DNA of 64,000 nt from a candidate division WWE3 bacterium (GTDB lineage: Bacteria; Patescibacteriota; 4484-211; GCA-002791395): contig JAAXWF010000002.1 of assembly GCA_013335095.1 (NCBI GenBank), positions 80,516 through 144,515 of the forward strand, given 5' to 3'. The position numbers and the translations under genes were made by a program. Positions 5,632-40,614 of the stretch are shown here, in pieces (within the stretch, counting starts at the first letter, position 1; each line of letters begins with the position of its first letter). Below the pieces are notes generated by a model, which saw only the letters and a program-made list of their open reading frames with translations, was not told the origin of the DNA and ran no database searches.

Positions 5632-5648
5632 TTAATGAATAACGATCA

Positions 5649-8579: not shown

Positions 8580-8613
8580 TTAGACCTTTTCTTTAAAATA
8601 ATAGTTAACAAAC

Positions 8614-11600
8614 TTAAGGACTTCCGGTTACTGGTGCAATCCTCAAAGTACCGCCATCGTTCATTACTGTTTTTACTTGGGTAGCAGTAAGGCCATAATT
8701 ATACAGACGGACATCATCAAAGATAGAGTCTGCATACGTAGTACCTTCTCGCCCGATATATAAATTCAGGGGGTTTGCGCTTAAAGTTTCACCCATGGTG
8801 GTCTGATTATCTCTCGCACCATTAATATAAAATGCATAATTTGTTCCTTGATGTACAAATGTTATGTGAGTCCATACGTTTTGAGGGATTGTCGATGTCG
8901 AGGCAAAGTAACCGGTACTCTCGTTATAAAATTCGACACGGTTATCGTTTAAGATATACAAAGAGTAATCCCATAACGTAGTTCCATTAGTCTTTAACAC
9001 AAGTGGTTCATAGCCAGAACCTGAACGCTTAATCCAAAATGCAATACTGAGATCTTTTGTAATATCCAATTTCGGATTATAGGGAACTTCAATATATTGT
9101 GATGAGGCACTACTAAAGGATAACCCATTATTTAGTTTTCCGTCAACAATTGCTGGCGAATTATAAATTGTACCGGTGAGACCATTATTTGATGAATCAT
9201 AAGCGGTAGATCCAGAAGCTTCATCAAGCTTCCAATGGGCAAATGGAGCTCCACGATTATAATCCCATGCAACTTGAGCAGATGTTCTAGCATAATCGTA
9301 TATCCGTATATTATCTAGTTTTGAGTTGCTATATTGAGATTGGTCATCATATCCTCCGAATTGAAGGATGCGGGAGCCTGCCCCAGCCGTTGTGTACGGG
9401 ACATTTGACGTAGTACCAGAAGCGACAAGCAGACCATTCCGATAAATTGACATGGTATCAGTAGCATTATTAAATGTGCAAGTTACGTATTGCCATTCAT
9501 TTAATGTCATTGAACTATCTGCGGCCAGCTCATAATAACCACCTGAATTATTGTAAAAAAATCCACAATCAAGACCTGATGATGATTTAAGCTCAAAATA
9601 ATAATTAGCGGTTCCGCCATCTGCGTATTTATTAATGAATGAATCATTACCTGAGGATGGCAATCTTCGGGGGTATATCCATGAAGACAGTGTAAAACTC
9701 GTTAATCGTAAACTTGTAGAATCTGAAATAGTAACTTGGTCATTAGTTCCGTCAAAATCGAGCGATTTACCTAATTTACCAGTAACCCAATCCGCCGCAT
9801 CCATCGTAGAATCAATAGTTCCGTTAAAATCATTTCCAGACGTATCAACAACAGTCGTCGTCGGATCCATATCAAATTGCCATTCTCCAACAGGTGGGTT
9901 ACACGTACTGGTATCTCCTGGAACACAATATTCCCGAGACGAGCTTCTTGATGCTGTTGTGCCATCAGACTCAGTAGACAATGATCCCAATACAATTGCC
10001 TTACCTGTATTATATTCAGTCAGTACGTCGCTGTCCGATAAAGCCGCATTGTATATTTTTATTTCATCTAGTTTCCCAGGGTAATAATACTCATATGGGG
10101 TCCCATTATTTGATCGACCAATGTTTAGATTTGAGCTATTAGATATAGATAGGGTCGAAGATGTTAACGCATTAGCTAGTTTACCGTCTTCATATGTTTT
10201 CAATATCGAACCATTACGTTCAAATACAATATGATGCCAGCTTCCATCTGCAATATCTGATCGACCATATAGAAAGTATTCGGTACCGTTTACATAAACA
10301 GAACTGTACCAACGACTGTCATCCGTACTATCATGTAAACCAATTTCATATCCATACCTGGGTGCCGATGATACTTTGCTAATCATTATAAAGTAATTAT
10401 TGAAAACAGAAGCTTGAGTAGAATTTACCCACAAGCTGATTGAAAAATCAGCATTATCACCGAAATCAATACTATTATTATCCGTTACAGTTACGACATC
10501 AGAGCCATCAAAGGATACCGATTTACCTATTTTCCCATCGTTACTCCAAGCGGGTTTTTCTGAAGAGGTACCAAAATTAGCATCGAGCGAACTTCCTTGA
10601 ACTGTATTATTATGCGCAACAGATCCATATCCTTCATCCAGCTTCCAATAACCCACCGGTCCCGATACCGGAGTTCCAACTAGCGGGTGGTTCGCATTCA
10701 TATCTTGAATTATTTGGGATGGGGTACGGGCATAGTTGTATATTTTTAAATCATCCAGAGTACCATCTAGAGAACTGTTAGCACCAGCGCCACCCATTTG
10801 AACGGTGCCAGTCGAGTTCAATAGTGATCCAGTCGCATCACTAATAGCACCAGGGAGAAGATTTCCATTAAGATAAATTGACATATTAGTACCGCTCTTT
10901 ATCGCTGCGATGTGATACCACTGATTAGCGACAAGAGCAGATCCAGCGCCTGGAAAGACAAAGAACTCTGAACTTGAATTTGACCATGAAAAAACCGGTT
11001 GATTATCTGTTCCATTAATATAGAGTCGATATGACTGCCAAGGAGATGCACTATGTGACTTCCAGAACATTGTTGCCGCCTCTCCGGATTTATTAGTTGG
11101 CAAAACATCGAGCTTTATCCACCCCATTAACGAAATATCTGATGAAGGTTCCAATATACTATTATCTGTAGCTTCTATGTAGTCATTACTGCCATCGAAA
11201 TCAAGACCCTTACCATATTTCGCAGTTTTCCATAACGCTTGGGTGATCGTCGCACTAGTACTATTGCCACTGGTATCATTGGCTATAGCCCCTGATCCCT
11301 CGTCCATTTTCCAATATCCAACGGGTCCAGGTGCAAAGGCATTGAGCTTACTTACCTCACTCGCGGTTAAGGCACGATTATATACTCTAACTTCATCCAG
11401 ACTGCCATTAAAGTCCATAGCACTATCGCCATTACCATGATGACCAATCCATGTATTTGTTCCTAATCCTGAACACGAAATTGTTGTAGTAATTGATTCA
11501 TTAGCAACCTGCATGCCATCGATATAAAGACTGTGATAACTAGCGGATTTCACAACATACGCATAATGATGCCAACCAAAGCCAGCTACAAACAAACCTG

Positions 11601-14085
11601 TATTCACACCACTCCAATCGCTTCCATCATAATTGAAGCCAGTTACTCCGGCAGAAGAAAATGGATCATCTAACCGTAATCCGACGCAGTCGCCTAATGA
11701 AATTAATTCGGAACCATTACTATCAGCACTGGTTAAGTTTGCCCACCCTGATAATGTCACCTCGGAAAGATTGCCCATAAGCCCACTAATCATAATGCTG
11801 TCATCTGTACCATCAAAAGATGTACCATTTCCAAATTTTCCTGATGTATAGGTAGAATTACCATTCCAAGCACCATCACGCCCATTACCTGATCGATCGC
11901 ATGAATCATTAGCGCCGCCAGAACAGGTATTCGCCGCGGCTTCATCCATTGGCCAATAACCAATTAGTCCATCTGAAATAGATTCATTACTCGAAGAACC
12001 TAAACTAACACTAATAGTTTCACCAGAACTACTTAATGTAGAGAGTCCAGCAACTTCGCGTGATGTTTTTTCTTTTTTATATACCTTAAATTCATCTAAA
12101 TATCCGTGATAATTTGCTGATGATGATCCTCCTAATAATAAATCGTTTGAATCACTCGCTGGAGATCCGACACCGTTTGTGCTCGTAGCAGCCAGGCGCC
12201 CATCTACATATACTGATATCTCATCATCTGCGTCATCAGAATATGTAACAGCAATGTGCTGCCACCGATTAAGACGCAATATATCTGGAACCGAAACACT
12301 TGCATCAGTAGTTGCAAGATCGAGTGATACTTCTAAATCCATTAATCCATCAGACCCTTCATTCGTTGTACGAATATATGTATTCGTGCCTTTTTGAATT
12401 ATTTGGCCAACATTATTTTCGCCATCAGACAACGTCTTTACCCAAGTGGAAAGGGTAAATCCGCTTGATAACATTTTATCGAGGTCGATAGAATCATTAT
12501 TTGTTAACGTCGAAACATTGCTTGAACCATCAAATAAGATACATGAATTTGCAATACACAGATCCTCACTTTTCCAGCTTGGGCCAGTAATTGAATACGT
12601 AACACGGACTTCAAGTAGATCAATACCCACTCCTGATGCAGGCGGATCAAATAAGTAATTATTTACCCAATAGTTATTAAAAGGCTCATTTGCCTTAACA
12701 GTGTAAACATCAAAATCACCTTGTTCTACGTTAATCGAAAGAACTGGTACCTCTGATATCTGCCTGTCTATTTCGTGTAATACGATGTCACCGACCTCTA
12801 AGGTATCGACACGAATCCATTCAAATGCGCTTTGTCCGCTTTTCTTCGCATAAATAAGCTCATCATTTGTAGCTTTCACATCATCGTTAATCGTATAGAT
12901 TTCTTTTTTAGGAGACGTAATGATCGATCTTAGGGTATTAACTTTAAATTCATGCGTATCTGTATTTAAACTCAAGATTTGATCGCCTGGGGAAAATGAT
13001 TCTATTGGACGATAAACACCGTTACCATCAAGCAATAAACTCCCAGTAGGAAATGAGAATGTGTCGATCTGTGCATTCACTCGTACACGAAAATTAGTAT
13101 TATCTAGCTCAGAAGCGACCCATGTTCTACCCCACGTATCACTAGTACTACCAGCCGTAAATGTAGCATCAGTACTCGATAAGGGTCCTACACTTGTATA
13201 TGATGAAGCATACGTGGTCCCGCCATTATGCGAAAGACGAACACCTATACCATCGCCGGCAAACGTATCACATCCGGTACAACTAGATGCCTCCATTCTT
13301 ACTTCAATACCTAATATGGTTGCGGAAGATGGAATACTGAAGCCAAACGAATAATAATCTTGCATATCTAGGTTTGTTGCTTCGTATGCATATGCATTAT
13401 TGCTCGTATAAGCATTAGCCGGAGTAGTCCAAGAATTATAGTCTTCACCTGAATGTGTTGGTGCAACAAATCCTGTATCTGCCGTTGATGTCAACGGTGC
13501 GCTGTTTGAATTATTACTAAGGTCATGCGCGGTACTTCCATAGCCTTCATCAAATGATAAATAGGTAACCGGTGCTGTACCAATTTCTTCTGTATTCAAT
13601 GAAGCTGAACCACCACTCGGAGTTAACGAAGTTACATTAGTCACCGAACTATCACTTTTTGTTGAGACGCTTCTATTTCCATAGTACATATATGCATTGT
13701 TTACACCATTAATAATTTCTGAATATGCGACATAATAAGTTGTCGTAGAAGTATTACATCCGGAAACAAGCTGATAGCGATATCTTTTTCCTTCACTATT
13801 TGTAAATCGTGTATCATCGCAATCTGATTGCATTTTTCCCGAAGATATTAATGTTGAGGTATTAACTGTTATGGTAATTCTTCGTTCAGATAGTGAAGCA
13901 TTATGAGTGAAAGTGATCGATTGTCGATAACTAAAGGTATCATCGTACCAGGCATATGCTCCTTTTGGCTGGTTGAAAAATACTAAATAAGACAGACCGA
14001 TGGTAATAAGTATTCCGATAATTAGTCGAATACGTTTATGTAAAGTTTCACCAATCATCAGCGTTTTAAAATTAATAGTATTCAT
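8614..14085 (-). CDS. giant surface protein paralog 1 (1823 aa): signal-anchor, DUF2341-like N-domain, embedded Hint/BIL-like module, multiple LamG/ConA-like jelly-roll repeats
   Basis: TM helix (LIIGILITIGLSYLVFF). The N-domain 'AWYDDTFSYRQSI…DDTRFTNSEGK…MYYGN' aligns with the N-domains of paralogs 2, 4 and 5. Repeated LamG-type linker motifs are 'GYWPMDEAAANTCSGGANDSCDRSGNG', 'GYWKLDEGYGS', 'REYCVPGDTSTCNP' and 'IYNYARTPSQIIQDMNANHPLVGTPV'. Confidence 0.8.
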   Translation of the reverse strand: MNTINFKTLMIGETLHKRIRLIIGILITIGLSYLVFFNQPKGAYAWYDDTFSYRQSITFTHNASLSERRITITVNTSTLISSGKMQSDCDDTRFTNSEGKRYRYQLVSGCNTSTTTYYVAYSEIINGVNNAYMYYGNRSVSTKSDSSVTNVTSLTPSGGSASLNTEEIGTAPVTYLSFDEGYGSTAHDLSNNSNSAPLTSTADTGFVAPTHSGEDYNSWTTPANAYTSNNAYAYEATNLDMQDYYSFGFSIPSSATILGIEVRMEASSCTGCDTFAGDGIGVRLSHNGGTTYASSYTSVGPLSSTDATFTAGSTSDTWGRTWVASELDNTNFRVRVNAQIDTFSFPTGSLLLDGNGVYRPIESFSPGDQILSLNTDTHEFKVNTLRSIITSPKKEIYTINDDVKATNDELIYAKKSGQSAFEWIRVDTLEVGDIVLHEIDRQISEVPVLSINVEQGDFDVYTVKANEPFNNYWVNNYLFDPPASGVGIDLLEVRVTYSITGPSWKSEDLCIANSCILFDGSSNVSTLTNNDSIDLDKMLSSGFTLSTWVKTLSDGENNVGQIIQKGTNTYIRTTNEGSDGLMDLEVSLDLATTDASVSVPDILRLNRWQHIAVTYSDDADDEISVYVDGRLAATSTNGVGSPASDSNDLLLGGSSSANYHGYLDEFKVYKKEKTSREVAGLSTLSSSGETISVSLGSSSNESISDGLIGYWPMDEAAANTCSGGANDSCDRSGNGRDGAWNGNSTYTSGKFGNGTSFDGTDDSIMISGLMGNLSEVTLSGWANLTSADSNGSELISLGDCVGLRLDDPFSSAGVTGFNYDGSDWSGVNTGLFVAGFGWHHYAYVVKSASYHSLYIDGMQVANESITTTISCSGLGTNTWIGHHGNGDSAMDFNGSLDEVRVYNRALTASEVSKLNAFAPGPVGYWKMDEGSGAIANDTSGNSTSATITQALWKTAKYGKGLDFDGSNDYIEATDNSILEPSSDISLMGWIKLDVLPTNKSGEAATMFWKSHSASPWQSYRLYINGTDNQPVFSWSNSSSEFFVFPGAGSALVANQWYHIAAIKSGTNMSIYLNGNLLPGAISDATGSLLNSTGTVQMGGAGANSSLDGTLDDLKIYNYARTPSQIIQDMNANHPLVGTPVSGPVGYWKLDEGYGSVAHNNTVQGSSLDANFGTSSEKPAWSNDGKIGKSVSFDGSDVVTVTDNNSIDFGDNADFSISLWVNSTQASVFNNYFIMISKVSSAPRYGYEIGLHDSTDDSRWYSSVYVNGTEYFLYGRSDIADGSWHHIVFERNGSILKTYEDGKLANALTSSTLSISNSSNLNIGRSNNGTPYEYYYPGKLDEIKIYNAALSDSDVLTEYNTGKAIVLGSLSTESDGTTASRSSSREYCVPGDTSTCNPPVGEWQFDMDPTTTVVDTSGNDFNGTIDSTMDAADWVTGKLGKSLDFDGTNDQVTISDSTSLRLTSFTLSSWIYPRRLPSSGNDSFINKYADGGTANYYFELKSSSGLDCGFFYNNSGGYYELAADSSMTLNEWQYVTCTFNNATDTMSIYRNGLLVASGTTSNVPYTTAGAGSRILQFGGYDDQSQYSNSKLDNIRIYDYARTSAQVAWDYNRGAPFAHWKLDEASGSTAYDSSNNGLTGTIYNSPAIVDGKLNNGLSFSSASSQYIEVPYNPKLDITKDLSIAFWIKRSGSGYEPLVLKTNGTTLWDYSLYILNDNRVEFYNESTGYFASTSTIPQNVWTHITFVHQGTNYAFYINGARDNQTTMGETLSANPLNLYIGREGTTYADSIFDDVRLYNYGLTATQVKTVMNDGGTLRIAPVTGSP
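12646..13041 (-). other. Hint (Hedgehog/intein) -like / bacterial intein-like (BIL) module, aa ~349-480 of paralog 1
   Basis: 'SLLLDGNGVYRPIESFSPGDQILS…' matches intein block A (C/S-L-x-x-D/E-T-x-V…I-E-x-L-x-x-G-D-x-V-L), with Ser in place of Cys1. Downstream it continues through 'EIYTINDDVKATNDELIYA' (a block-B-like T-x-x-[H->E]), 'WIRVDTLEVGDIVL' and 'FDVYTVKANEPFNNYWVNNYLF' (a block F/G-like VY…NF…VNN terminus, cf. intein VHN). This is a manual alignment to the Ssp DnaE mini-intein. Catalytic positions are degenerate. Confidence 0.5.
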
Positions 14086-14102
14086 TTAATATCACCGTCA
14101 AC

Positions 14103-17100
14103 TTATTGTACAAATTCAATAGCTGAATTGTTATTCATTAACGTTTTAATTTGTGTACGATTAAGCGCGTAAGTGTAAAATCGGACATCGTCAATAACCC
14201 CATTGAATAGATACCAACAATCAGTTGACATACATCCTGCGATCATAGGCTGAAAATCGTAGTTAAAATTAGAATTATAGGTGGTGGTACTTTCCATATT
14301 CCCATCTACATAGACGCTTAATGCATTTGCTCTATTATCCCAACTGCCCAACACGTGGTACCATCTGGTACCTCCGGACCTTAAGTCGGTAGTACCTGTA
14401 ACTGTAGCAGTTCCGTCGTTAACAGAAAGAATAAGCTTTCCTGCATTATCTATCACCAGGTTAAATACATCTTGTCCTCCAGCTGTTCTTGAAATAATAG
14501 GGTAGGGCCCACCAGAAGATGAATTCACCTTTATCCATGCAGCTATACTCCAGGACTCGTTTGTAACACTACCACCATAGGGCATACCAAAAGCGTCATA
14601 ATCTGCCAGATAAGCATATTGATCAGTACTCCCATCAAATGTTAATGCGCCGTTATATTTACCTGATGTGGTGCGAGTTGGGGAACCGACAAGATTACCA
14701 TGTGTATTATTGCCCGAAGAGTCATACACTGTGGTACCCGAAGTTTCATCAAAGGTCCAATGCCCAGCAGCGCCGCCCCGATCGTAGTTCCAAGCCACTT
14801 GAGCGGATGACATGGCAAAATCAAAAATCTGGACACGATCAATGTTACCAATAAACTCGGTAGTAGAATTATAACGCCCAATACTAACACTTGAGTTAAT
14901 GTAACTTATTGAATCCATAGTCGCAGACGAATTCATTAAATCCCCATCGATATAAATCGACTGTATGTTATTTGTATCGTCAATTACGTACGCAACATAG
15001 TGCCAGGTACTATCATTAAGATCGATATTTGAATCGATCTGATCATATTGACCAGCACCATAGTGAAAATACCCGCTCATACCAGTAGTCCCTCCATCTT
15101 CAAACAATCCGTAACTATCACCGCGATAGCTAATAATATTTACACCGTTTGAATCTTCACCAGTTTGGCGTACCCATGCAGTAACAGTTACGTTTGAATT
15201 ATTAGTTGTATTTGCCGTTCCAGATAAATAGTCACCAGTACCATCGAAACGGAGACTTGAACCGAGTTTACCACGCGACCATACAGGATTACCGTTTATA
15301 GTTAAAGAAGAGTTCCCCGTTGAATCAGATACGGTAGACCCAGTATTTTCATCAAACTGCCATTCCTGAAATACAGGATTACACGTTCCAGTATCTCCCG
15401 GAACACAATATTCACGAGAAGAACTTCGTGAAGCCGTTATACCATCAGATTCAGTTGAGAGGGCGCCCATAACTACGGCTTTGCCTGTATTGTATTCAGT
15501 TTGAATATCTGATAGGTACATTACTGCTCGGTAGATCTTTAATTCATCTATATCACCAGTAAATTCACCGAGATTATTAACGGCATCATTGTCGGCGACG
15601 ATCAATGCGCCGTCATTTGCAAGTGAGCCGTTTTCTGAAAGTGAGTTATCTTGTGCAATCAAACGCCCGTCAACATATAAGCTAATTGAGGATGTATTTT
15701 GTTTAACAAATGTATAATAATGCCACAATCCGTCATACATATCTGCAGTAGTTGAAATACTTTCAACAGAAACATCAGTATCATCATTAATTGCAAAGCG
15801 TACGGCGCCTGTATTTTCAAAACTCATAGCATAACCAAGATTAGATGTAGAAGTATCTACTTTATTAAGTATTATTTCTCGCGTTGCAGGATTTGATGAA
15901 CCATCTGATTTCGCCCATAACGAAATCGCAAAATCATCAGATGCAACAAAATCATAATCACTATCATCAGCCCGAGAGAGCCAACGGGCACCATTCCCAT
16001 CCCATGCTTTATTAAATTTTCCACTATTTGTCCACGCAGCGGCACTTAAAGTTAAGTCATTATCATTCGGAGTACTATCTTGAGCAGTAGTTCCATATCC
16101 TTCATCAAATTTCCAATACCCCACAGATCCCGATACCGGAGTTCCAACAAGCGGATGATTCGCATTCATATCTTGAATAATCTGCGTAGCTGTACGAGGA
16201 TAGTTGTACAATCTGACATCATCGACCGATCCTTCATATGAAAAAACCGAAGGGTCAGTGAACGATTCACCCGAACCAATCAAAAATGGATTAGCAGTAT
16301 TTGCGAAACTACCACTCAAAGTATCGGTATCAACAAGTACACCATTAACATAAAACTTGACTGTCGATCCATTCCACGTGCCTGCAAGATGGTACCACTG
16401 ATTGTAAGACATACTTGGACCCGTAAGGTAGGCCTCTGTACCCGTACTATTTGTTAGTGAAAAATCCCAGATGTCAAAACCATTAGGTTTACTGATATAA
16501 AAATGATGAACATTACTGTTCCCACTACCACGGCTCACAACTGTTCCACCGTTATTGTACTGACTGCCGGTATATCTGGCCCATGCTTCGATAGTAATCT
16601 GATTGGTTAAATCAAATATCGAATTATCGGCAGCTGAAATGTAATCACCGGTCCCATCAAAATACGTACCCCCACCAAATTTACCAGCCGACCATTTAGC
16701 CTGATTATATAAGGTACCCGGTAGCCCCGAAGTACTCACATCATATGCCGTCGATCCGGTATGTTCATCAAGTTTCCAATATCCGATAGGACCAGGTGCA
16801 AAGGCATACAGCTTACGAACTTCACTCGCTGTTAATGCTCGATTATAAAATCGGATATCATCAAGTCGGCCATTTAGAGTGATATCAGTACCTGAATTAC
16901 GGTTACCAATCTTTGCTGATTCGCCCCCGAAAGTAGGTGTTTGAGTTTGGGCGGCCTCCGCTTCAAGGACGCCATTAACATAAACCCGGACATTTTGTCC
17001 ATCCACGGTACCGGTGACATGATACCAAGCGTTGGTATTTATAGTTGTAGTACCTGTTACTTCCTGTAGTCCATCACGAAGGCTCAATCTAAGCTTATAC

Positions 17101-19130: not shown

Positions 19131-19190
19131 AATTACCCTTTATCTATTATAGATTATTTTCTGGAAATGGATGCTAAATTACACCGGTAA

Positions 19191-25830: not shown

Positions 25831-25860
25831 ACAGGTTCATTATAGTCAAACGACGCTCCG

Positions 25861-28800
25861 CTAGAAACGCACCGATGCATTGTCATTTAGGGCCGTCTGT
25901 ACTTGCAGTTGTGAAAGGGGATAATTATAAATCCTAACATCATCGATAGTTCCGGTAAACGTGCGATCAGTGGCGGATCGACTTCCAATTATTACATCGC
26001 GCGAAGAGTCATCACTGGCCGATGTTGCCGGAGTATTATTTTCAGTCGTCGAAACAAGCTTGCCGTTGATATAAAAGATTGGATCGTTTGAAGCACTGGA
26101 TCGATTATAGACAACCGCGACATGAGTCCATTGAGATAAAGAGATCGAATTTGTCGGAGTAGACCACCATCCCCAATTCGCACCGCCAAAATTTATGAAA
26201 AATCCTAAGCTATTGTTGTTGCACAGAATACCGCCATCACTACACACAAATAGTCCCCATCCGCTCGACGAAACAGGATCAGTTCCTTTATCTACGATCC
26301 GTCCAAATCCGCCTTCACCATAACTAGTTGGATTAATCCAAGCCGCGACAGTCACCATATTCAAATTATCTAATGCAGTTGGAGACCCTGCATTTATGTT
26401 ATCGTCAATTCCATCAAAAGTTACGGCACTTGAGATATGCCCCAAAGTCGTTCGTGTTGGTGTATTCGTAAATGTACCGTTAAATGCATTTCCCGAAGCA
26501 TCATATGCAGTACTGCCGGATGTTTCATCAAGTTTCCAATGAGCTACAGGAAGACCTCGATTATAATCCCATGCAACTTGAGCGGGCGTGCGCGCATAGT
26601 CATATAACAGGACGTTGTCTAAAGATCCCGATAAGGGGAAAATCCCTCCGGAACCGTGATTAAACAATGAATTAACGACTAATGAGGTAGTACCATTACT
26701 TAGTGTTTGGGTAGATCCTTGCATCACACCATTTACGTAAAAGGTAACCGAACTGGACTGGCGAGCAATTTCTAAGTGATACCATCGATTTGCAGTAAAA
26801 CCTGAATGTGAAACCGCAACAGCTTCTCCCAAAGCCGGACTATAATAAATATTCCCCGAACTTCCAATACTATCGATATAAACGCCATATATACCTGGTG
26901 AGTTTCCCACAAGAACGGCGTCATTATTCGAAGATTCTTGATGCTTAAACCATAGACTTATGGTATTGCTAGTACCTAAATTCAAATTGCTAAATGTAGC
27001 AACATCGGCGGAATCATTGCCTGCCATTGTATACGTTTTTCCGATCTTTCCCGGCTCCCATTGTCCAACTGTTGAGCTATCAACGAGAGTTGCATCACGA
27101 TTGTTGCCGGAACGATCTTTAATGCTGCTACCGGTACCATCATCAAAACTCCATACTGCAACCGGAGGATTACAGGAAGCCGCATCACCTGGAACGCAAT
27201 ATTGGCGGTCAGATGAATTAGATGTCGTCGTTCCATTACTGGCGGTAGACAGAGATCCTAAAGTTAATGAACTTGACTGATTTCTAAGGTTTTTTACTTG
27301 ATCTGATGATAGGGGTGAATTGAAAATATGTACGTCATCAATCGTACCGTCAAACTCATTATCAGCGCCATCGCTACGACGGCCAATATCAACCGTCGAA
27401 CTACCATTTGACATACTATATGCAGGAGTGGTATCGGTATATCGGAGTTCACCATCGAGATAAATGTCCAATCGGACATCACTAATAATTACGCACGTTA
27501 AATTATGCCAAGATCCAGTAGTGACATTTACCCCTGTAATATAGCCCTCACCACCACCGGCTCCAAGATGATTATTACCACCTGCCGTCCACGCTTCACA
27601 GTACGCATTACTGGTGCCGTAAAAACCTAAGCCCCATTCATAATTATCAGTAGTCCCTTTAGTTACCAAGTATGTTCTCGAACCGCTTGCAATCGAGTCG
27701 GCATTAAACCACGCTGAGACGGTTAGTCCTTCATTCCATGATGGGGAAAAAATATCTCGATCGGGGATGGAAATATAATCATCGACGCCATCAAACTTCA
27801 ATGCTTTATCAAATTTGCCTGAATTAGTCCAACCAGAAGAAGCACTGGCAGGAGATGAGAATCCATTTAGCGATCCATTAATTGATGATCCATCAGAACC
27901 GCTATTATTGGCAGTTGTACTATTTCCTTCATCGAATTTCCAATAACCGGCAGATACGGGAACAACAGGATCATTCGTCGATGCACCGTGCATATCTGCC
28001 AAGATTTGATCATACGTTTGAGCATAATTATAAATACGGACATCATCAATAATGCCTGGAATAACCATAGTAGGAGACCAAGGTTCAGCGCCAAACCATA
28101 AATTTGAAGCACCAACGTAGGAGATAGCACCTGTATAGTTGTTAGTACCTGATAATATTCCGTCTACATAAATATTAACTGTAGATCCATCATAAGTTCC
28201 CGTAAGGAAATACCAAGTATCTGGTAACAACGTTGCACTAACGGCGGTAGTTGATCCAGAACCATAAAGTACACGAAACCGGGCAAAAGTACTTGTACCA
28301 CTTCCATCAGTATTCAGATGCAAAGAATAACCTGCCTGATTATTCCAATCTTGATCAGAAATAATTCCAGCTTCTTTCCAAGCAGTATGCATTGATGAAT
28401 CAAATTTGATCCATGCCGAAACGGTTAATCGCTGAGGACGAAGCAAGGCATTGTTATTTACAACAATACGATCATCTGAACCCGAGAATTGAACTCCCTT
28501 ACTAACCTTCGATGATACCCATGGATCTGCAGGAAGATTCGTTAAGGTCCCATCATTCGCATTGCCTGACAAATCTTGAGCGACAGTTCCACTACCATCA
28601 TTTAAGTTCCAATATCCGATTGGTCCAGGGGCAAAATGATATAAAGCCATTACATCATTTGAAGTCAAAGCTCTATTATAAATGCGTAGTTCATCAAAAT
28701 TAGCTGATGTCGGAGTACCTATTAGACTATCTCGGCCAATGAATAATAGATTGCTCGAATAATTTCTAGATTCTGATGCAGTATGTTCTGCTATACCATC

Positions 28801-30930
28801 TATGTAAATCGTTTGGGTGTTATTATTAACGACATAAGTCACTGCATGCCAATTATTGTCATTAATATCACTTACCGATGTAGCGGATCCGTTTGAAGAT
28901 CCATCAATCGAGCAATTAATTTTATTTAAAGAGACACCATCTATCCGACAATACAACTGATCAAAGCTTATGGGAATACCTGAAGTTGCCGCTGTCTTAA
29001 TCCAAAAGTGAATAGTCAAAAAGTTAGATGTTAAATCAAATTGATTCGAAGAAACTAGGTAATTCGAATCATTTCCATCTGTACTTATAGCATTTCCATA
29101 ATTACCAGGACTATAAGAAGCCGAGCCTTGTAAACCGCCATCGATCCCATTTCCTGATTTATCACACGTATCATTAATCCCACCGGTACAGCTATTAGCT
29201 GCAGTTTCATCCATCGGCCAATATCCTACAAGCCCATCAGAAAGTGATTTGTTCGATCTTGATCCCATCGTCACTCCGCTTAAATTAGTACCGCCGGAAT
29301 CATACAATGCAACTATTTGAGCAGGTGAGAGAACGGCAGAATATAATTGGACCTCATCAAAGAAGCCTTGCCCGTAATTTGAGCTTATTTGTGCTATTTT
29401 TAACGCTGTTGCGTTTATCCCTGTAGCTGTAGTAACAACAACATGATTCCAACGATTCGTTTGAATTGTCGATGAGATTTTTCCATTCACATAAATGGTT
29501 GGAGAAATAAAACCAGTTGCAGACAGGGTCCCTGAAGATGATTGAATGTAGGCTGAACCATTCAAATCAATAAACTGTTCGGATGCAGTCATTGGACGAA
29601 CCCAAAAGGCCGCAGTTTTAACACCAGATGTTGTTTGTGCCGACGTAACGACATCATTACTACCATCAAAATATAAACATTTTCCCGAAACACACAGATC
29701 TTCTGATTGCCATGTGGCACCATTAATTGAACCCACCACATTATTTGAACCAGAGTTATTCACCGTAGTCCCAAATCCTTCATCAAATGACAGTCGAACT
29801 TCTGGATCAGTTGGGGATTGTGGAACCGAAACCGTTTTAATAAATGACGATGGGTCGTTTTGATTGGCGTATTCAGTCGCAACCCAATCCGATGACAGTT
29901 GATTATTAGAAACCCGTACTTCATCTAACTGACCATCAAAGTTCCAACCACTATAAAACATAATTGCTCCAATCCGAGCCGCACCTGAACCGATGTAATC
30001 GGACGGCGCAGTATCAGATGCAACCGAAACACCGTCTCGATAAATATTTCTTGCATTTGTTGCTGCGTTGTAGGTGCAATTCCAATAATGCCAATTTGTA
30101 TCTGTATACGTTGGGGTATCTAAATCGTTCGAGTAAAAAGCAAATGTAAATGTATTTGAGTTTCGAAATCCTATGTGAAGAGAGCCGTTTGTGACAATAC
30201 TGGCAACTTGACCAACAACAAAATCATAGTCATTAATAATGTCTCTTTTTGCCCAAAAGCTAATTGAGAATGAATTACTCGCAACATTGATTGCTGAAGA
30301 ATCGTTTATTTCGTCATCACTGCCGTCTAGATTTAGACCGTTACCAACTCTCGCTGAAACAAGTTGCGATGACAACATAGATCCTGAAGTCGTACCATCA
30401 TTATTTTGTGATGTAGAATCCTGCATTTGGGGTGCCGTTCCACCTGGATCTTCCTTTAAATGCCAAACGCTTAAGTACGAATTATTCCATGTTGCAGATA
30501 TGCTCTGCTGATTTGTAGCATTTGCATTACCATAATACATATAGATAGTAGTGTCATCGTTATAATCTAGGGTCGGTACCTCAACCCAGGCAATAAGTTC
30601 ACCGGTTGATGCATTGTATGATTCAATCTCATGGTCTAGTTTTGTAGAACCATCGCTTGAAGTAAAGACGATATCATCGCCATCTGATTGAGCTGAAGAT
30701 TTGAGATCACCATCAGTTCTATTTATTAAAACGGGAAAATTTATTAAGTCAGCAGATCCAGAAACCTTACTTTCGTCAATAACTAACATTTTTCGATATG
30801 ACCATGAGGAGTTATACCATGCAGCCTGTGCTGATTTAGGCGTAAAAAGAAAATATACTCCTGTTGCAATAAAAAGGATCAGAGAAAAAATAAAAAATAT
30901 TTTTGAAAACTTTTGTTTCATATTAGACAA
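25861..30930 (-). CDS. giant surface protein paralog 4 (1689 aa): signal-anchor, DUF2341-like N-domain, LamG/ConA-like repeats
   Basis: TM (IFFIFSLILFIATGVYFLF). The N-domain 'AAWYNSSWSYRKMLVIDESKVSGSADLINFPVLINR…IYMYYGN' is ~90% identical to paralog 5 over the first ~130 aa. Motifs are 'GYWPMDETAANSCTGGINDTCDKSGNG', 'GYWNLNDGSGT' and 'RQYCVPGDAASCNP'. Confidence 0.8.
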   Translation of the reverse strand: MSNMKQKFSKIFFIFSLILFIATGVYFLFTPKSAQAAWYNSSWSYRKMLVIDESKVSGSADLINFPVLINRTDGDLKSSAQSDGDDIVFTSSDGSTKLDHEIESYNASTGELIAWVEVPTLDYNDDTTIYMYYGNANATNQQSISATWNNSYLSVWHLKEDPGGTAPQMQDSTSQNNDGTTSGSMLSSQLVSARVGNGLNLDGSDDEINDSSAINVASNSFSISFWAKRDIINDYDFVVGQVASIVTNGSLHIGFRNSNTFTFAFYSNDLDTPTYTDTNWHYWNCTYNAATNARNIYRDGVSVASDTAPSDYIGSGAARIGAIMFYSGWNFDGQLDEVRVSNNQLSSDWVATEYANQNDPSSFIKTVSVPQSPTDPEVRLSFDEGFGTTVNNSGSNNVVGSINGATWQSEDLCVSGKCLYFDGSNDVVTSAQTTSGVKTAAFWVRPMTASEQFIDLNGSAYIQSSSGTLSATGFISPTIYVNGKISSTIQTNRWNHVVVTTATGINATALKIAQISSNYGQGFFDEVQLYSAVLSPAQIVALYDSGGTNLSGVTMGSRSNKSLSDGLVGYWPMDETAANSCTGGINDTCDKSGNGIDGGLQGSASYSPGNYGNAISTDGNDSNYLVSSNQFDLTSNFLTIHFWIKTAATSGIPISFDQLYCRIDGVSLNKINCSIDGSSNGSATSVSDINDNNWHAVTYVVNNNTQTIYIDGIAEHTASESRNYSSNLLFIGRDSLIGTPTSANFDELRIYNRALTSNDVMALYHFAPGPIGYWNLNDGSGTVAQDLSGNANDGTLTNLPADPWVSSKVSKGVQFSGSDDRIVVNNNALLRPQRLTVSAWIKFDSSMHTAWKEAGIISDQDWNNQAGYSLHLNTDGSGTSTFARFRVLYGSGSTTAVSATLLPDTWYFLTGTYDGSTVNIYVDGILSGTNNYTGAISYVGASNLWFGAEPWSPTMVIPGIIDDVRIYNYAQTYDQILADMHGASTNDPVVPVSAGYWKFDEGNSTTANNSGSDGSSINGSLNGFSSPASASSGWTNSGKFDKALKFDGVDDYISIPDRDIFSPSWNEGLTVSAWFNADSIASGSRTYLVTKGTTDNYEWGLGFYGTSNAYCEAWTAGGNNHLGAGGGEGYITGVNVTTGSWHNLTCVIISDVRLDIYLDGELRYTDTTPAYSMSNGSSTVDIGRRSDGADNEFDGTIDDVHIFNSPLSSDQVKNLRNQSSSLTLGSLSTASNGTTTSNSSDRQYCVPGDAASCNPPVAVWSFDDGTGSSIKDRSGNNRDATLVDSSTVGQWEPGKIGKTYTMAGNDSADVATFSNLNLGTSNTISLWFKHQESSNNDAVLVGNSPGIYGVYIDSIGSSGNIYYSPALGEAVAVSHSGFTANRWYHLEIARQSSSVTFYVNGVMQGSTQTLSNGTTSLVVNSLFNHGSGGIFPLSGSLDNVLLYDYARTPAQVAWDYNRGLPVAHWKLDETSGSTAYDASGNAFNGTFTNTPTRTTLGHISSAVTFDGIDDNINAGSPTALDNLNMVTVAAWINPTSYGEGGFGRIVDKGTDPVSSSGWGLFVCSDGGILCNNNSLGFFINFGGANWGWWSTPTNSISLSQWTHVAVVYNRSSASNDPIFYINGKLVSTTENNTPATSASDDSSRDVIIGSRSATDRTFTGTIDDVRIYNYPLSQLQVQTALNDNASVRF

Positions 30931-30937
30931 ATGAAAG

Positions 30938-33900
30938 TTACTTAAACTTTACCGCTGAACCTTCATTCATAACCAGTTTAACCTGTTCGGCAGTCAATGC
31001 ATAGTTATACATACGAACATCATCGATTGAACCTTCGGATAATGCTTTATATGTTGCATCGGTTGGCACGAATGCTCCTATATTCATGTTTGATGATGTA
31101 TCTTCCATACCGTTATATGTGCCTTGGGATGATGTACTAAGAACCTGATCCTTACCATTTACATATAAAGCTATTCCCCCCCCATTGTTACTACCATCAT
31201 AAGTTGCAGCGAGATGCGTCCATTGATTTTGATAGTTTGATAAATTACTCGTGGTATATGCAAAGATTTGATTGGCACCGGATGTATCGAATAATGCCAA
31301 CTCCAGCTCCCCAGAAATACCTGGTGATGATGGGGCCGTGTCAAAAGACCACTCCAAATTGCTGGTAGCATTATCTCCTTTACTTGCAATCACAAAATCA
31401 GAGGTATCTCCCATATAAACCCATGCTGTTATAGAAAAAGGTCGATCATCTGACCCATCTCCAAACGACAAAAGATTACGATCACCGATAAGTACATAAT
31501 CGTTAATCCCATCAAATGAGATGGCACTGTTGTACCTACCCGATGTTAATCGTGTCGGCGAATTAGTCAGTGTGCCATTTGAACTGTTGCCCGAAGCATC
31601 ATATGCCGTAGTTCCAGACGCCTCATTAAATTTCCAATAACCAACAGGATCACCTTGGTTATAATCCCAAGCGATTTGAGCTGGAGTACGGACATAGTCG
31701 TACACTCTTACCGAATCAATTAAACCATCAAAATGACGAGTAGCCTCGTTCGGACTATTTCCAATATCCCACGTGTCCGTCGAATTTGATAAACCTCCGC
31801 TCCCATGAACAAAGTTGAAGCCGACAGGCCGACCATTTACATAAAACATTCCCGAACTGGTGCCATTGTTATAAACCATCGTTACGTATTGCCATTGGTT
31901 AAGAACCACTGAGTTAGCATCTGAATTGAAAGAATGCGCTGGTCCTAAATTAACTCTTAAGCTGTCGTTATAATAGGTTCCGTCATCAAGAATAAAACTT
32001 GGTCCGACACCCCAACCGGGAGAAATAATGAATCCAAACCCACCGCCACCAAATGTGCGTGGATAAATCCAGGCACTCATCGTTATTTGGCCTGATCCAC
32101 TCGCAATATTTCGCAATGAAGTGGTCATATTGGTAATATCAACATGATCTGCGGCCGACTCTCCAGTAAAGTTGCCCGCTTTACCAACCTTGCCTGGTAA
32201 AAATCGAGGTGAACCACTACCGGTCCAGGTACCGTTGCTCCCTCCTCCAGTAATGTCGTTAACAACAGATCCCGTACCTTCATCAAAACGCCATTCGGCT
32301 ATCGGAGGGCTACATGTTGTAGTATCTCCAGGGACACAATACTCCCGCGAAGAGCTGTTTGATGCCGTTGTTCCTGTTGATGTAGTAGAGCTTGACCCCA
32401 TCGAAATTGCTGATCCACCTCGAAATTCTTCCATAATTTGATCTACGGTTAATAGCGAACGATATACCTTTATTTCATCAACATCACCAAAAAATTCGTT
32501 ACCATCATCAACTCCAGTGCGATCACCAATCACCAGTGACGTTGAGTTTGCTAACGTACCCGTTGCAGAAATCGAAGTATCTTCACTAATAAGTCGTCCA
32601 TCAATAAAGATCTGAATTTTAGACGTACCATTTTTCATTGCGACGACATGATGCCAGTTTCCGTCATAGATATCGCGTCCGACATCACCAGCGCTATCAT
32701 CGGGTGACCAGGTCGCATCATCATCAATGCCAAACACTAAATCGCCATCAGTTTGAAAATATAATGCATATCCTTGAGTTGTTCCGTTTGATTTACTCAG
32801 CAAATATTCTGTCGAGGCGGGGTTTGTTGCGCTATCTGATTTAAACCATGCACTAATCGCAAGATCTTCTGCAGCCGAAAAGTCAAAATCATTATCATCG
32901 GCACGAGATACCCAATTAGCGCCAGTTCCATTCCATGATTTACCCAGTTTCCCATCCATTGCCCACGATACGTTAGAGAGTGTTAAATCGTTATCAAGAG
33001 AACTCGAGTCATTTGAGGTTGTGCCATACCCTTCGTTAAATTTCCAATACCCAGCAGTTCCGGCTCCACTTCCTGTAATCGGATGTCCAGCATTCATGTC
33101 TTCAATTATTTGCCGAGCTGTTCGTGCATAGTTATAGATTTTGACGTCATCAACGATTCCATCAAGATCACGGCTACCATCGGCACGTTCACCAATACGT
33201 ACTTGTGCAGTACCGTTTGTATACGATCCAGATGGGGTGGTACCAGTTGCAATGTTTACGCCGTTTACGTACAACCGAAGCTCCGGAATAGATAAATTAG
33301 CAGTCATAGCGATATGGTTCCATGCCCCGACTGTAAATGTATTCGATGTGCCCAGAGCTGTTAAGTAATCTGCACCCGATGACGTTGTAAGGTATGCCCT
33401 TACTGAGTTATTACTGTTATCAACACGGATAAACCATTCATAATTACTGCCAGCCCCTTTGCTGATCGGTTCAATCAGCGAGGTTAATGAATCAACATAT
33501 ACCCATCCCATTACGCTAAGTTGGTTTGTAGTATTCACCGAAAAGGCATCATTATCAGCAATGCTCACGCTATCGTTTACCGCATCAAAGTCTAAGGCAG
33601 CTCCATATTTGCCCGTGACCCAATCGTCCGATGAAAGACTATTCATCGTACCGGTAAATCCGTTTCCCGAAGAGTCATACACACTTGTCGTACCGGTTTT
33701 TTCATCAAGTTTATAATAGGCGATGGGGTCAGGGGCCCAATTATAAAGCTGTTTGGCTTCAGCAGAAGACAGGTAGCGATTATATATCCGTAGTTCATCC
33801 AGATCCATATCGTAATTACCCCAGGCACCATCATTTCGACCACTGACTGATAATGAAGCCGTATTAGCTATTGCGGCAGCTAATCCATCACCAGAATCCC

Positions 33901-36130
33901 AAATACCATCTTGAACTTCCCCATTAACATAAAAATGAGCACTGTTAGGATTGCCAAATTCATTTGTAAAAACAACAAAGTACCAAGTGTTTAAATTTGC
34001 AATTGGGTCTGATGTAGTCAAATATTTATGGTAATCTGCACCATCGTAATAAGAAAATTCAATATTCTCATAATCAGGTGATAATGAATAGTTAATTGAA
34101 GCATCCCATCCTTTGTATAAATAGTGTGACATTGGAGTACCGTCGCTCCCTCTCCTCAACCACATTGCCAGGGTAATTTCCTGCGTGATATCTAAAGAAT
34201 TACTATCAGGAAATACCAGACTATCACCAGAGCCATCGAAAGAAGTACCATTTCCATACTTTGCTGAAAAGGGAGCAGCACCTCCATTCCAATAGCCATC
34301 ATTCAAATTTCCAGAAACATCGCATGTATCATTTACTCCGCCAGTACAAGTATTCGCCGAAGTCTCATTCATCGGCCAATACCCAACTAAACCATCCGAA
34401 AGCGCGGTGGCATCTTTTGCTCCGAATTGTGTAGAAGCAGTACTACCATTTAATGAAGAATACAGTGCTTTAACCTCTCCAGCCGAAAGGACTGAAGGAA
34501 ATAAAGAGATTTCATCAAAAAAGCCTTGTCCATAGTTACTACTAATCTGACCTATTTTAAATGCAGTGGAGTTAATACCTGTATTAGTCGTAACAACTAT
34601 ATGATTCCATCGGTTGGCCGATATCGTAGTTCCTGGCTGACCGTTTATATAAATCGTTGGAGAAGTGAATCCCGTCGCTGATACAGTTCCAGATGACGAT
34701 TGGATATATGCCGAACCATTCAAATCAATATATTGTTCCGATGTTGTTGAAGGTCGAACCCAAAACGCCACACTTTTTACTCCCGAGGTTGTGGTTGCGG
34801 TAGTTACAACATCATTAGTACCATCAAAATATAAACATGAACCTGAAAGGCATAAATCAGAAGAACGCCAAGAAGCGCCACTTATTGTTCCGATAATTCC
34901 ATTCGTGCCAGAGTTATAAACCGTTGTTCCGTTCCCTTCATTAAAAGAAAATCGAAGTTCGGGATCGTTTGGCATTTGCACATCTGAAACCGATTTAAAG
35001 AAACTGGTAGGATCACTTTGATTAGCGTATTCGGTTGAAATCCAGTCAGCTGAAAATGCAGTATTCGTGACGTGGAGCTCATCAATACTTCCGTCCAATT
35101 CTTCGCCTCCCGAGCTTACAACTTGTCCAATATTGTAACTAGTAGCACCAGATTCATCATCCCAAAAAGTAGTCGATGATGCTGAACCCGATTCATAACT
35201 GACCGATTGGGCAACTCCATTAACGTAAAATGTATTACCCGTGCCATTTACCACATAAGATACGTAGTACCATCTATTTGCCAATATAGGAGTAGTCGTA
35301 GCAGAACCACGAAGGCCATCACTTGACCAAATATGAAAATTCCCCTGATAAATTCCGAACTCGAACCAATTCGGAGATGGTCCAGACGAAAAAATTCCGT
35401 GCATTTTGTTTAATGGGCCTTTTACATAAATCCATGCCGAAATGGTTCCTTGAGAAAGGGCATCGTACGCATTCCCATTTTCCAGGTCAATGTAATCAGT
35501 TCCACTAGCATCAAAGTCTATCGCGTTTCCAATTTTACCTGTAATTAAATCACCTGATGTTAATCCAGAAATTGCATTCCCATCGTTGCTGGTTGAAGTA
35601 CTATCTTTCATTTCGGGAGAACTTCCAGTCGGGTCTTCCTTAAGATGCCAGACACCAGCATAATTTGAATTCCATGAACCAGTACTATTTTGCTGGTTAC
35701 TCACCGACGAATTCCCATAATACATATACACGGTGGTGTCGTCGTTATAATCCAATGTTGGTACCCTAACCCAAGCAATGAGTTCGCCTGTTGATGAGTT
35801 GTACGATTCGATTTCATGATCAAGTTTTGTCGATCCATCACTCGAGGTAAAAACAATATCATCACCATCAGATTGAGCATTAGATTTTAAATCGGTATCT
35901 ATTCGTGAAACCAGCACCGGAAAATTTATAAGATCAGATGATCCCGAAACTTTTGATTCATCAATAACTAACTTTTTTCGAAACGACCAGCTAGAGCTAT
36001 ACCACGAAGCTTCGGCTCGATCCGGGGTAAAAAACATATAAATACCGGTGGCGAAAAAACCAACCAAACAAATGATAAAAAATATTCTTTTTATAATCGG
36101 TGGGAAAAAACGTTTGACCATAGTAGGCAA
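30938..36130 (-). CDS. giant surface protein paralog 5 (1730 aa): signal-anchor, DUF2341-like N-domain, LamG/ConA-like repeats
   Basis: TM (IFFIICLVGFFATGIYMFF). N-domain 'ASWYSSSWSFRKKLVIDESKVSGSSDLINFPVLVSR…VYMYYGN'. Motifs are 'GYWPMNETSANTCTGGVNDTCDVSGN', 'YNYARTARQIIEDMNAGHPITGS', 'REYCVPGDTTTCSP' and 'GYWKFNEASGTTAYDASGN'. It is separated from paralog 4 by only 7 nt. Confidence 0.8.
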   Translation of the reverse strand: MPTMVKRFFPPIIKRIFFIICLVGFFATGIYMFFTPDRAEASWYSSSWSFRKKLVIDESKVSGSSDLINFPVLVSRIDTDLKSNAQSDGDDIVFTSSDGSTKLDHEIESYNSSTGELIAWVRVPTLDYNDDTTVYMYYGNSSVSNQQNSTGSWNSNYAGVWHLKEDPTGSSPEMKDSTSTSNDGNAISGLTSGDLITGKIGNAIDFDASGTDYIDLENGNAYDALSQGTISAWIYVKGPLNKMHGIFSSGPSPNWFEFGIYQGNFHIWSSDGLRGSATTTPILANRWYYVSYVVNGTGNTFYVNGVAQSVSYESGSASSTTFWDDESGATSYNIGQVVSSGGEELDGSIDELHVTNTAFSADWISTEYANQSDPTSFFKSVSDVQMPNDPELRFSFNEGNGTTVYNSGTNGIIGTISGASWRSSDLCLSGSCLYFDGTNDVVTTATTTSGVKSVAFWVRPSTTSEQYIDLNGSAYIQSSSGTVSATGFTSPTIYINGQPGTTISANRWNHIVVTTNTGINSTAFKIGQISSNYGQGFFDEISLFPSVLSAGEVKALYSSLNGSTASTQFGAKDATALSDGLVGYWPMNETSANTCTGGVNDTCDVSGNLNDGYWNGGAAPFSAKYGNGTSFDGSGDSLVFPDSNSLDITQEITLAMWLRRGSDGTPMSHYLYKGWDASINYSLSPDYENIEFSYYDGADYHKYLTTSDPIANLNTWYFVVFTNEFGNPNSAHFYVNGEVQDGIWDSGDGLAAAIANTASLSVSGRNDGAWGNYDMDLDELRIYNRYLSSAEAKQLYNWAPDPIAYYKLDEKTGTTSVYDSSGNGFTGTMNSLSSDDWVTGKYGAALDFDAVNDSVSIADNDAFSVNTTNQLSVMGWVYVDSLTSLIEPISKGAGSNYEWFIRVDNSNNSVRAYLTTSSGADYLTALGTSNTFTVGAWNHIAMTANLSIPELRLYVNGVNIATGTTPSGSYTNGTAQVRIGERADGSRDLDGIVDDVKIYNYARTARQIIEDMNAGHPITGSGAGTAGYWKFNEGYGTTSNDSSSLDNDLTLSNVSWAMDGKLGKSWNGTGANWVSRADDNDFDFSAAEDLAISAWFKSDSATNPASTEYLLSKSNGTTQGYALYFQTDGDLVFGIDDDATWSPDDSAGDVGRDIYDGNWHHVVAMKNGTSKIQIFIDGRLISEDTSISATGTLANSTSLVIGDRTGVDDGNEFFGDVDEIKVYRSLLTVDQIMEEFRGGSAISMGSSSTTSTGTTASNSSSREYCVPGDTTTCSPPIAEWRFDEGTGSVVNDITGGGSNGTWTGSGSPRFLPGKVGKAGNFTGESAADHVDITNMTTSLRNIASGSGQITMSAWIYPRTFGGGGFGFIISPGWGVGPSFILDDGTYYNDSLRVNLGPAHSFNSDANSVVLNQWQYVTMVYNNGTSSGMFYVNGRPVGFNFVHGSGGLSNSTDTWDIGNSPNEATRHFDGLIDSVRVYDYVRTPAQIAWDYNQGDPVGYWKFNEASGTTAYDASGNSSNGTLTNSPTRLTSGRYNSAISFDGINDYVLIGDRNLLSFGDGSDDRPFSITAWVYMGDTSDFVIASKGDNATSNLEWSFDTAPSSPGISGELELALFDTSGANQIFAYTTSNLSNYQNQWTHLAATYDGSNNGGGIALYVNGKDQVLSTSSQGTYNGMEDTSSNMNIGAFVPTDATYKALSEGSIDDVRMYNYALTAEQVKLVMNEGSAVKFK

Positions 36131-36260
36131 TACAAAACGACTAAATTAACTATAGCACAATTTATAGAGATGAAGTGGGATAATTGGCTTTCATCTCGAT
36201 AAAAAGTCACCTACCAACATTTCAAACCGATGGTAATCAAAACTGCTACAATAATTAAAT

Positions 36261-38480: not shown

Positions 38481-38510
38481 AAAACCGCCAAAGAAGGCGG
38501 TTTGGCAAAA
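38481..38510. terminator. bidirectional rho-independent terminator between convergent genes
   Basis: A perfect hairpin aaccgcc-aaagaa-ggcggtt (38483-38502) is flanked by A-run upstream and T-containing tract downstream. Read on the - strand it is followed by TTTTTTATT, which is strong for the - gene 38520..39179. Confidence 0.5.
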
Positions 38511-38519
38511 TAACGGCAG

Positions 38520-40598: not shown

Positions 40599-40614
40599 AT
40601 AGTTTGATAGGTTG

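Follow-up and report, generated by a model that had tools for sequence, protein, structure and literature searches.

Five giant LamG-repeat proteins encoded in tandem in a candidate division WWE3 bacterium: a putative family of exported binding proteins

The stretch of DNA analysed here (the window; 64,000 nucleotides, positions 80,516–144,515 of contig JAAXWF010000002.1, NCBI GenBank assembly GCA_013335095.1) comes from a metagenome-assembled genome of candidate division WWE3 (Katanobacteria), which belongs to the Candidate Phyla Radiation (CPR). Between window positions 8614 and 36130 lie five giant genes, G1–G5, all on the minus strand and together encoding 8993 amino acids (aa) according to the open reading frame (ORF) list (Table 1). 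A reading made earlier from the sequence alone (the original prediction) had described five co-oriented giants of these sizes in an ultrasmall type of bacterium, and both the ORF list and the source of the DNA agree with it. From G1 to G5, the gaps between the listed ORFs are 17, 60, 30 (plus the small ORF S) and 7 nucleotides (nt). They grow slightly if G4 and G5 begin at the ATG three codons in, and this ATG, at codon 4, is likely to be the true start of both. S, with its one hydrophobic helix, corresponds to the small membrane-protein gene that had been noted in the G3–G4 spacer; its 3′ end is overlapped by the TTG start of G3, and it had no Pfam, NCBIfam or PHROG match. On one side of the array stands a convergent gene for a GH5 (glycoside hydrolase family 5) plus dockerin protein, on the other a divergent choline/carnitine acyltransferase-like gene. 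The GC content of the array (0.38–0.44) is similar to that of most of the remaining window. No LamG unit was found in window ORFs outside G1–G5, and Rfam and tRNA scans of the window gave no match. G1 and G2 carry the NCBI name 'DUF2341 domain-containing protein'. G3, G4 and G5 had no exact match in the protein collection, probably because the queries used the TTG starts.

Table 1. Coordinates of the array genes, of the ORF and intergenic region associated with them, and of modules within the encoded proteins.
Feature	Position in window	Strand	Description
G1	8614–14085	−	1823 aa; NCBI NTV30965.1; putative signal peptide, divergent DUF2341, jelly-roll domain X split by putative Hint domain, 6 LamG units; last gene of the array
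G2	14103–19130	−	1675 aa; NCBI NTV30966.1; putative signal peptide, DUF2341, 7 LamG units
G3	19191–25421	−	2076 aa; putative signal peptide, ~725-aa beta-strand-repeat head, 6 LamG units + 1 partial
S	25396–25830	−	144-aa ORF filling the G4–G3 gap; one hydrophobic helix, residues 32–55
G4	25861–30930	−	1689 aa; putative signal peptide, DUF2341, 7 LamG units
G5	30938–36130	−	1730 aa; putative signal peptide, DUF2341, 7 LamG units; first gene of the array
Region upstream of G5	36131–36260		Divergent intergenic region, common to the acyltransferase gene; presumed promoter region
G2, export signal	19032–19130	−	Residues 1–33: basic N-terminus, 19-residue hydrophobic core, then HPKNADA|A
G2, DUF2341 module	18681–19031	−	Residues 34–150
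G4, DUF2341 module	30472–30822	−	
G5, DUF2341 module	35657–36007	−	
G1, divergent DUF2341 module	13636–13950	−	
G3, beta-strand-repeat region	23112–25286	−	Residues 46–770, replacing DUF2341 and LamG1
G1, domain X	13057–13593	−	Residues ~165–343; unnamed beta-sandwich
G1, putative Hint/bacterial intein-like domain	12658–13056	−	Residues 344–476
G1, IDLLEVRVTY	12595–12624	−	Residues 488–497; matches the last domain X strand of homologs, LDWVPVKVHY (alignment, by inspection)

All five proteins matched Pfam Laminin_G_3 in at least six stretches each (E about 1e-117 to 1e-133, 386–439 bits; gathering score 27.6 bits), with secondary matches to Toxin_R_bind_N, Pentaxin, Sialidase and TS_C. Units were counted using a profile built on the proteins' own units, which gave 6–7 per protein (Table 1) and not the 6–10 proposed before. 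A unit starts with (F)DG..D and ends with DDVRIYNYALT..Q, with GYWKFDE.SG standing just ahead; the G/D of FDG..D, two Trp and the D of DDVR are kept in every unit. The second unit of G2, G4 and G5 is compact (~130 aa). What had been taken for conserved linkers between units are mostly edge strands of the LamG domain itself, GYWKFDE opening the Laminin_G_3 unit as its first strand and DDVRIYNY..T..Q closing it as its last. Three further motifs, REYCVPGD..C.P (between units 5 and 6), GLVGYWPMDE and PAQVAWDYNRG, occur in one copy per protein each, at fixed joints. DUF2341 (PF10102; COG name MJ1470) was matched above its gathering cutoff of 23.4 bits by G2 (44.3 bits), G4 (49.4 bits), G5 (44.5 bits) and, marginally, G1 (28.3 bits); G3 had no Pfam match to it. 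The original prediction had recognized a DUF2341-like N-terminal domain in four of the proteins, correctly, and an AWY…MYYGN motif common to them, which is found in G2, G4 and G5, whereas the G1 version shows only 28% identity.

Residues 34–360 of G2, which comprise DUF2341 and LamG1 (the one LamG unit modelled), were modelled with AlphaFold2 (predicted local distance difference test score, pLDDT, 89.3; predicted template-modelling score, pTM, 0.89). The best Foldseek matches of the model in the PDB were the carbohydrate-binding domain 4 of AbnA, lectin domains of trans-sialidases, the Hc-N domain of clostridial neurotoxins and pentraxins (E 1e-7 to 9e-11; TM score 0.78 on the target for AbnA domain 4), the search being dominated by the LamG part. 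Judged from this model, the LamG units are beta-sandwiches of the concanavalin A (ConA) fold, and the LamG/ConA jelly-roll assignment first made for the repeats stands. The matched domains have the same fold as the LamG unit but only 12–19% sequence identity to it; they are single modules on an enzyme or toxin, whereas here 6–7 units form the whole protein and a catalytic part is absent.

The layout of the G2 export signal is common to all five proteins. In each, the N-terminal helix (hydrophobic core of 15–19 residues) is the sole hydrophobic segment, and it is followed by a Pro and then by a small-x-small sequence (HPKNADA|A, TPKSAQA|A, TPDRAEA|S, QPKGAYA|W and SPNVSMA|A). A Pro..AxA pattern in this place is characteristic of a signal peptidase I site. 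Its presence after the helix in all five proteins makes a Sec signal peptide that is cleaved off more likely than the signal anchor that had been proposed, although the hydrophobic cores are long. The single N-terminal helix itself was found in each protein as described.

Relatives were sought by scanning one genome per species for the GL[VI]GYWPM joint and the unit-edge motif DD[VL][RK][IL]YNY. At least 538 were present in species-representative genomes, mostly of the CPR. We kept 78 related loci, each of up to about 27 kb, and tallied arrays over 72 of them. The 78 loci are mostly from CPR bacteria (Microgenomates groups, WWE3, Parcubacteria, Saccharibacteria) or from metagenome assemblies, with a few from other lineages; the nearest relatives, at 33–39% identity, belong to Microgenomates, WWE3 and other CPR metagenome assemblies. 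Six or seven LamG units were counted in 75 of 93 complete relatives, the median length of which is 1733 aa. Two to four giant copies lie within about 27 kb in 26 of the 72 loci, always co-oriented and mostly with short gaps. The five copies in the window form the largest array seen, four being the maximum in the related loci, which are limited to about 27 kb. No homolog of S was found among the 78 loci.

When units of 107 giants from the related loci were compared, the unit in the same position was the most frequent best match for most units (typically 40–70 of 107). Because units match by position across genomes, the six-LamG core is, on this comparison, an old and fixed architecture, of which the window genes are typical members. 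The description of the repeats as rapidly diversifying accordingly fits the domain bodies, which have diverged, but not the core. G1–G5 fall within an operational CPR hexa/hepta-LamG family of ~1500–1800 aa with 6–7 units and the once-only joints GLVGYWPM and C.PGD..C.P. With other CPR DUF2341/LamG giants they share the domain set, size class, phylum and tandem habit; nothing essential is different, and what sets the window apart is the five copies and two unusual heads (the repeats of G3 and the putative Hint insertion of G1). The DUF2341–LamG head is distributed far more widely, in Asgard archaea, methanogens, Planctomycetota and Omnitrophota, and is at times fused to pilin N-termini or to sorting domains of the type IX secretion system (T9SS).

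In pairwise comparisons G1–G5 align colinearly, with 31–41% identity over 1400–1790 aa, and the five are paralogous, as had been proposed. G2, G4 and G5 are mutual closest relatives, which makes them, by these alignments, a lineage-specific triplication. The distance of G1 and G3 from the other three is as great as that from proteins of other genomes, and the best matches of G3 are found in other genomes; judged in the same way, the paralogs are old. Among G2, G4 and G5 the DUF2341 region is the best-conserved part (74–80% amino-acid identity, 73–74% DNA identity), ahead of the compact second LamG unit (66–73%) and the inter-domain joints (40–65%), while the bodies of the other LamG units are mostly 19–35% identical (44% in one pair). 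This mosaic suggests a conserved scaffold or docking module that bears diverged binding surfaces.

An assembly artefact or collapsed duplication, a possibility raised along with the original prediction, was considered as a source of the array. DNA repeats among the five genes are only 60–81% identical over at most 300 nt, and no inverted repeats were found among them. A Logan contig (L080, run SRR11449211) is 100% identical to window positions 1–19010 and so independently reproduces G1 and most of G2. Its end at 19010, which speaks for an artefact, falls inside a DUF2341-coding repeat (18733–19032) that is the most similar sequence common to G2, G4 and G5, a repeat at which short-read assemblers evidently break. 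The low repeat identity together with the exact Logan match makes an artefact very unlikely, to the point of being negligible. The five frames are moreover intact and colinear, with the divergence given above, and the tandem habit is seen likewise in 26 other genomes. We therefore treat the array as genuine.

CPR bacteria presumably spend their lives attached to other cells, yet studies exist for very few of their surface proteins. We consider it probable, although well short of certain, that the array encodes a tandem family of Sec-exported, fibre-like, multivalent binding proteins of lectin type. Such proteins would be retained on the surface of the WWE3 bacterium, bind ligands there and act in attachment, with attachment to a host being plausible. 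Export across the single membrane would be directed by the N-terminal signal. A shared scaffold, and probably a shared site of attachment to the envelope of the cell itself, would be made up of DUF2341, the compact second LamG unit and the joints, while the strongly diverged LamG bodies would recognize, at many different sites, glycans or proteins that partner cells or polymers carry. Five paralogs could in this way provide one cell with a repertoire of binding specificities. The core of six LamG domains would be fixed and the N-terminal head exchangeable: DUF2341 and an extra LamG unit in G2, G4 and G5, a divergent DUF2341, a jelly-roll and a Hint domain in G1, and beta-strand repeats in G3. 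For a small genome, 27.5 kb is a large outlay on a single protein family, and the array offers leads in the fixed six-domain core, in the conserved DUF2341 head, which may anchor the proteins, and in the diverged LamG bodies, which may carry specificity.

Several points weigh against this assignment. No known anchor (LPXTG, C-terminal helix, surface-layer homology domain or cohesin) was recognized in G1–G5. The C-terminus of all five proteins is a LamG unit, there is no C-terminal hydrophobic segment of the kind that accompanies a sortase anchor, and the sole match to LP.[TSA][GAN] is internal (G1 residue 1475). Cleavage of the signal peptide would leave the proteins with no recognized means of staying on the cell, and they could then be released. 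The conserved Asp residues are putative Ca2+ or ligand sites on the grounds of the fold in general, and LamG domains also serve as plain structural or protein-binding modules. A metagenome scan for strain variants returned only distant DUF2341–LamG proteins, with at most 53% identity over short segments.

The same domains could serve nutrition: the proteins would then be nutrient-capture scaffolds, with LamG units as carbohydrate-binding modules (CBMs) that keep polysaccharide close to the cell or to secreted enzymes, the GH5–dockerin protein being an example. Such a role is in keeping with the best structural match (AbnA domain 4, the arabinan-binding part of a GH43 arabinanase), with the weak likeness of G1 domain X to CBM4 and CBM22, and with the convergent neighbour, for which the earlier identification as a GH5–dockerin enzyme was borne out by GH5 and dockerin matches. 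We nevertheless hold it to be unlikely. No cohesin that could receive the dockerin was found in G1–G5 or the other window ORFs scanned, G1–G5 have neither a catalytic domain nor a GH16 motif, and the array and the GH5 gene are convergent and hence not co-transcribed. Nor did a GH5 gene recur beside relatives in the 78 loci, which also leaves a glycan-targeting locus, an idea that was based on this one convergent gene, unsupported. Two more specific assignments were rejected: a cellulosome scaffoldin for want of any Cohesin match in the same set of ORFs, and a GH16-type glucanase on the absence of E-x-D-x-x-E from all five proteins and of any GH16 Pfam match. The proteins might instead be structural parts of the cell's own surface layer (S-layer) or matrix, with the paralogs as antigenic or phage-evasion variants. 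A conserved scaffold with variable exposed bodies would suit such a coat, relatives adjoin other giant fibrous proteins, and the only sequence-level PDB match is to 4QVS, an 'S-layer domain-containing protein' (E 7.7e-7); that match is, however, limited to one LamG unit. G1–G5 have no surface-layer homology domain or other known S-layer anchoring domain, and S-layer proteins are usually products of single, highly expressed genes, so that we regard an envelope coat as distinctly unlikely.

A further alternative for G1–G5 is a place on a type IV pilus, as accessory or tip proteins docked through DUF2341, as has been proposed for archaeal DUF2341 proteins. It is from archaea alone that experimental leads on DUF2341 come. 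Archaeal DUF2341 proteins are encoded in type IV pilus loci and are proposed tip adhesins (PMC4858521), and a DUF2341 gene of the epd pilus locus of Methanococcus maripaludis was recovered repeatedly in a transformation-defect screen (PMC10133366). Some DUF2341–LamG proteins bear the pilin N-terminal domains PF07963 or PF07790, and the window contains a pilin gene at 47681–48112. In G1–G5, by contrast, neither the prepilin motif (G|F-T-L-I-E) nor an N_methyl match (E < 0.01) was found, and the N-termini end in AxA; the archaeal link is weak because these pilin features are absent. The window yielded no genes for pilus assembly, pilin-like ORFs are present in just four of the 78 related loci, and G3 does without DUF2341. 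The lack of pilin features in G1–G5 and the rarity of pilin-like ORFs led us to reject a pilus link as the leading explanation, and we consider it quite improbable.

Exported, multivalent binding proteins, the reading we prefer, can be compared with TafC (NCBIfam NF052521; PMC11821415), a LamG subunit modelled at the tip of haloarchaeal Tat-fimbriae and proposed to be their adhesive part; the likeness lies in the outward-facing LamG. NF052521 was the only NCBIfam model matched by the units (best score 220.6 bits against a whole-protein cutoff of 410 that takes in an N-terminal TafA-like domain, with no match in G5), and the best stretches matched the LamG part of the profile only (within positions 128–365). 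Unlike TafC, G1–G5 show no visible twin-arginine (Tat) signal at their N-termini, and they have 6–7 LamG units in place of one. For the CPR, concanavalin-like proteins have been speculated to aid attachment (PMC12911398) and DUF2341 has been mentioned in giant proteins (PMC11809585); LamG or laminin G otherwise receives passing mentions only in the CPR literature. Since the genes had been annotated, the family is widespread and an adhesin role had been suggested in the literature, our finding adds detail and is not a new system. It contributes the six-unit core as a fixed feature, the mosaic pattern of conservation, the absence of a conserved link to GH5 and the putative insertion of a Hint domain in G1.

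The head of G3 contains an internal 138-aa duplication (23842–24141 and 24256–24555, 78% DNA identity). Its relatives are unnamed, T9SS sorting-domain, 'beta strand repeat-containing' or 'autotransporter adhesin' proteins, and in sequence it resembles adhesin-type beta-strand repeats. In the head of G1, domain X was modelled with AlphaFold2 (residues 141–510) at a pLDDT of ~80–90; the Hint part of the model, where the alignment has no depth, remained below 50. Domain X has weak PDB similarity to the jelly-roll modules CBM4, CBM22 and CBM16 and occurs elsewhere in secreted oxidases, peptidases and YD-repeat proteins. Residues 344–476 aligned with positions 8–135 of 137 of Pfam PT-HINT (23.6 bits, E 6.7e-5, below the 27.7-bit cutoff) and matched PDB entry 2LWY, a bacterial intein-like (BIL) domain, with E 5.7e-4. 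The last strand of domain X resumes after these residues (Table 1), and for this reason the Hint domain appears to be inserted within domain X, as an intein would be. A protein of one related locus (L069) aligns across domain X and most of the Hint region.

With the BIL domains of secreted proteins (2LWY) the G1 domain shares a length of ~133 aa, its place in a secreted protein, a Ser nucleophile at position 1 and the block B Thr. It differs from them in its score below the Pfam cutoff and in an incomplete catalytic set: block B reads TNDE for TxxH, with Glu for His, the domain ends in ..VNN (NN and not HN), and the +1 residue is Tyr and not Cys, Ser or Thr. On account of the Glu in block B and the Tyr at +1, splicing of the canonical kind is not to be expected, and any activity would be non-canonical. 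A bolder proposal, which we think doubtful, would describe the family as a CPR-wide surface fibre with six fixed LamG domains and swappable N-terminal heads, in which G1 processes itself through the Hint domain. If it were true, a cut or splice at the Hint borders would rebuild the jelly-roll or yield two strand-complemented pieces, and G1 would be a releasable or force-sensitive adhesin.

Co-transcription of the array would be in keeping with its single strand and its gaps of 7–60 nt. A consensus scan placed neither a terminator nor a promoter in the gaps, nor a promoter upstream of G5, and its sites were no more frequent than in shuffled sequence; such a scan is uninformative on the operon question. 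The region 36131–36260 is presumed to hold the promoter because, 5′ of the array, no other non-coding gap exceeds 60 nt. The sequence TTGACTATAATG, which is TGacTATAAT-like, lies 8–19 nt before the ATG of S (within 25831–25860). It is a possible internal −10-like element, from which S and G3 would be transcribed almost without a leader.

Other giant fibrous or lectin-like proteins adjoin the relatives in 39 of the 78 loci. Giant neighbours without LamG (1000–3300 aa), mostly on the same strand, were seen in loci L001, L008, L010, L021, L030, L039, L064 and others. The six neighbour giants scanned gave matches to collagen triple-helix repeats, H-type lectin, Peptidase_S74 (endosialidase chaperone), Gly_rich_2 or CBM_11, or no match; those of L001 and L008 had N-terminal matches to MerR-type helix-turn-helix domains. 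The gene content suggests that surface-fibre gene islands may exist in CPR genomes. Further recurring neighbours are small Big_1 proteins and, downstream, a tetratricopeptide-repeat (TPR) protein. A cassette of four genes, coding for proteins of ~490 aa (no Pfam match), ~330 aa (WxLIP_PGBD-like), ~300 aa and ~140 aa (Big_1), stands just upstream of the giants in about ten loci (L016, L021, L024, L027, L040, L055, L057, L067 and L070) and is absent from the window. Every PHROG match concerned LamG units in virion or tail-fibre families. A phage origin was rejected: these matches reflect shared-domain similarity only, and the other window ORFs scanned gave only housekeeping or ordinary cellular Pfam matches.

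On the convergent side of the array, the GH5 cellulase with its type I dockerin is encoded at 5649–8579 on the plus strand (NTV30964.1). Upstream of it, a 344-aa ORF (4597–5631, plus strand) had a weak match to Heavy_Cys_CGP (PF27854). On the divergent side, the acyltransferase gene (36261–38480, plus strand; NTV30971.1) encodes 739 aa with a strong Pfam match to choline/carnitine O-acyltransferase (E 1.3e-68). Its EHALVDG sequence (residues 426–432) resembles the catalytic-His motif, and it has a highly charged N-terminal extension of ~170 aa. This family is mainly eukaryotic and therefore unexpected in a CPR bacterium. The region of the gene shows a strong AT skew (0.27). Next to it, positions 38000–40600 have a GC content of 0.51, against about 0.40 elsewhere, and carry overlapping ORFs on both strands (38520–39179, 39209–39562, 39291–39953, 39309–40460 and 40116–40556). 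ORFs 38520–39179 and 39309–40460 had no Pfam match, the stretch had no Rfam match, and it could be foreign or non-coding DNA. The pilin gene of the window, ~12 kb from the array and on the minus strand, codes for a small protein in which a prepilin N-methylation motif was matched (PF07963, E 1.4e-8); a small ORF on the same strand (48137–48472) adjoins the gene.

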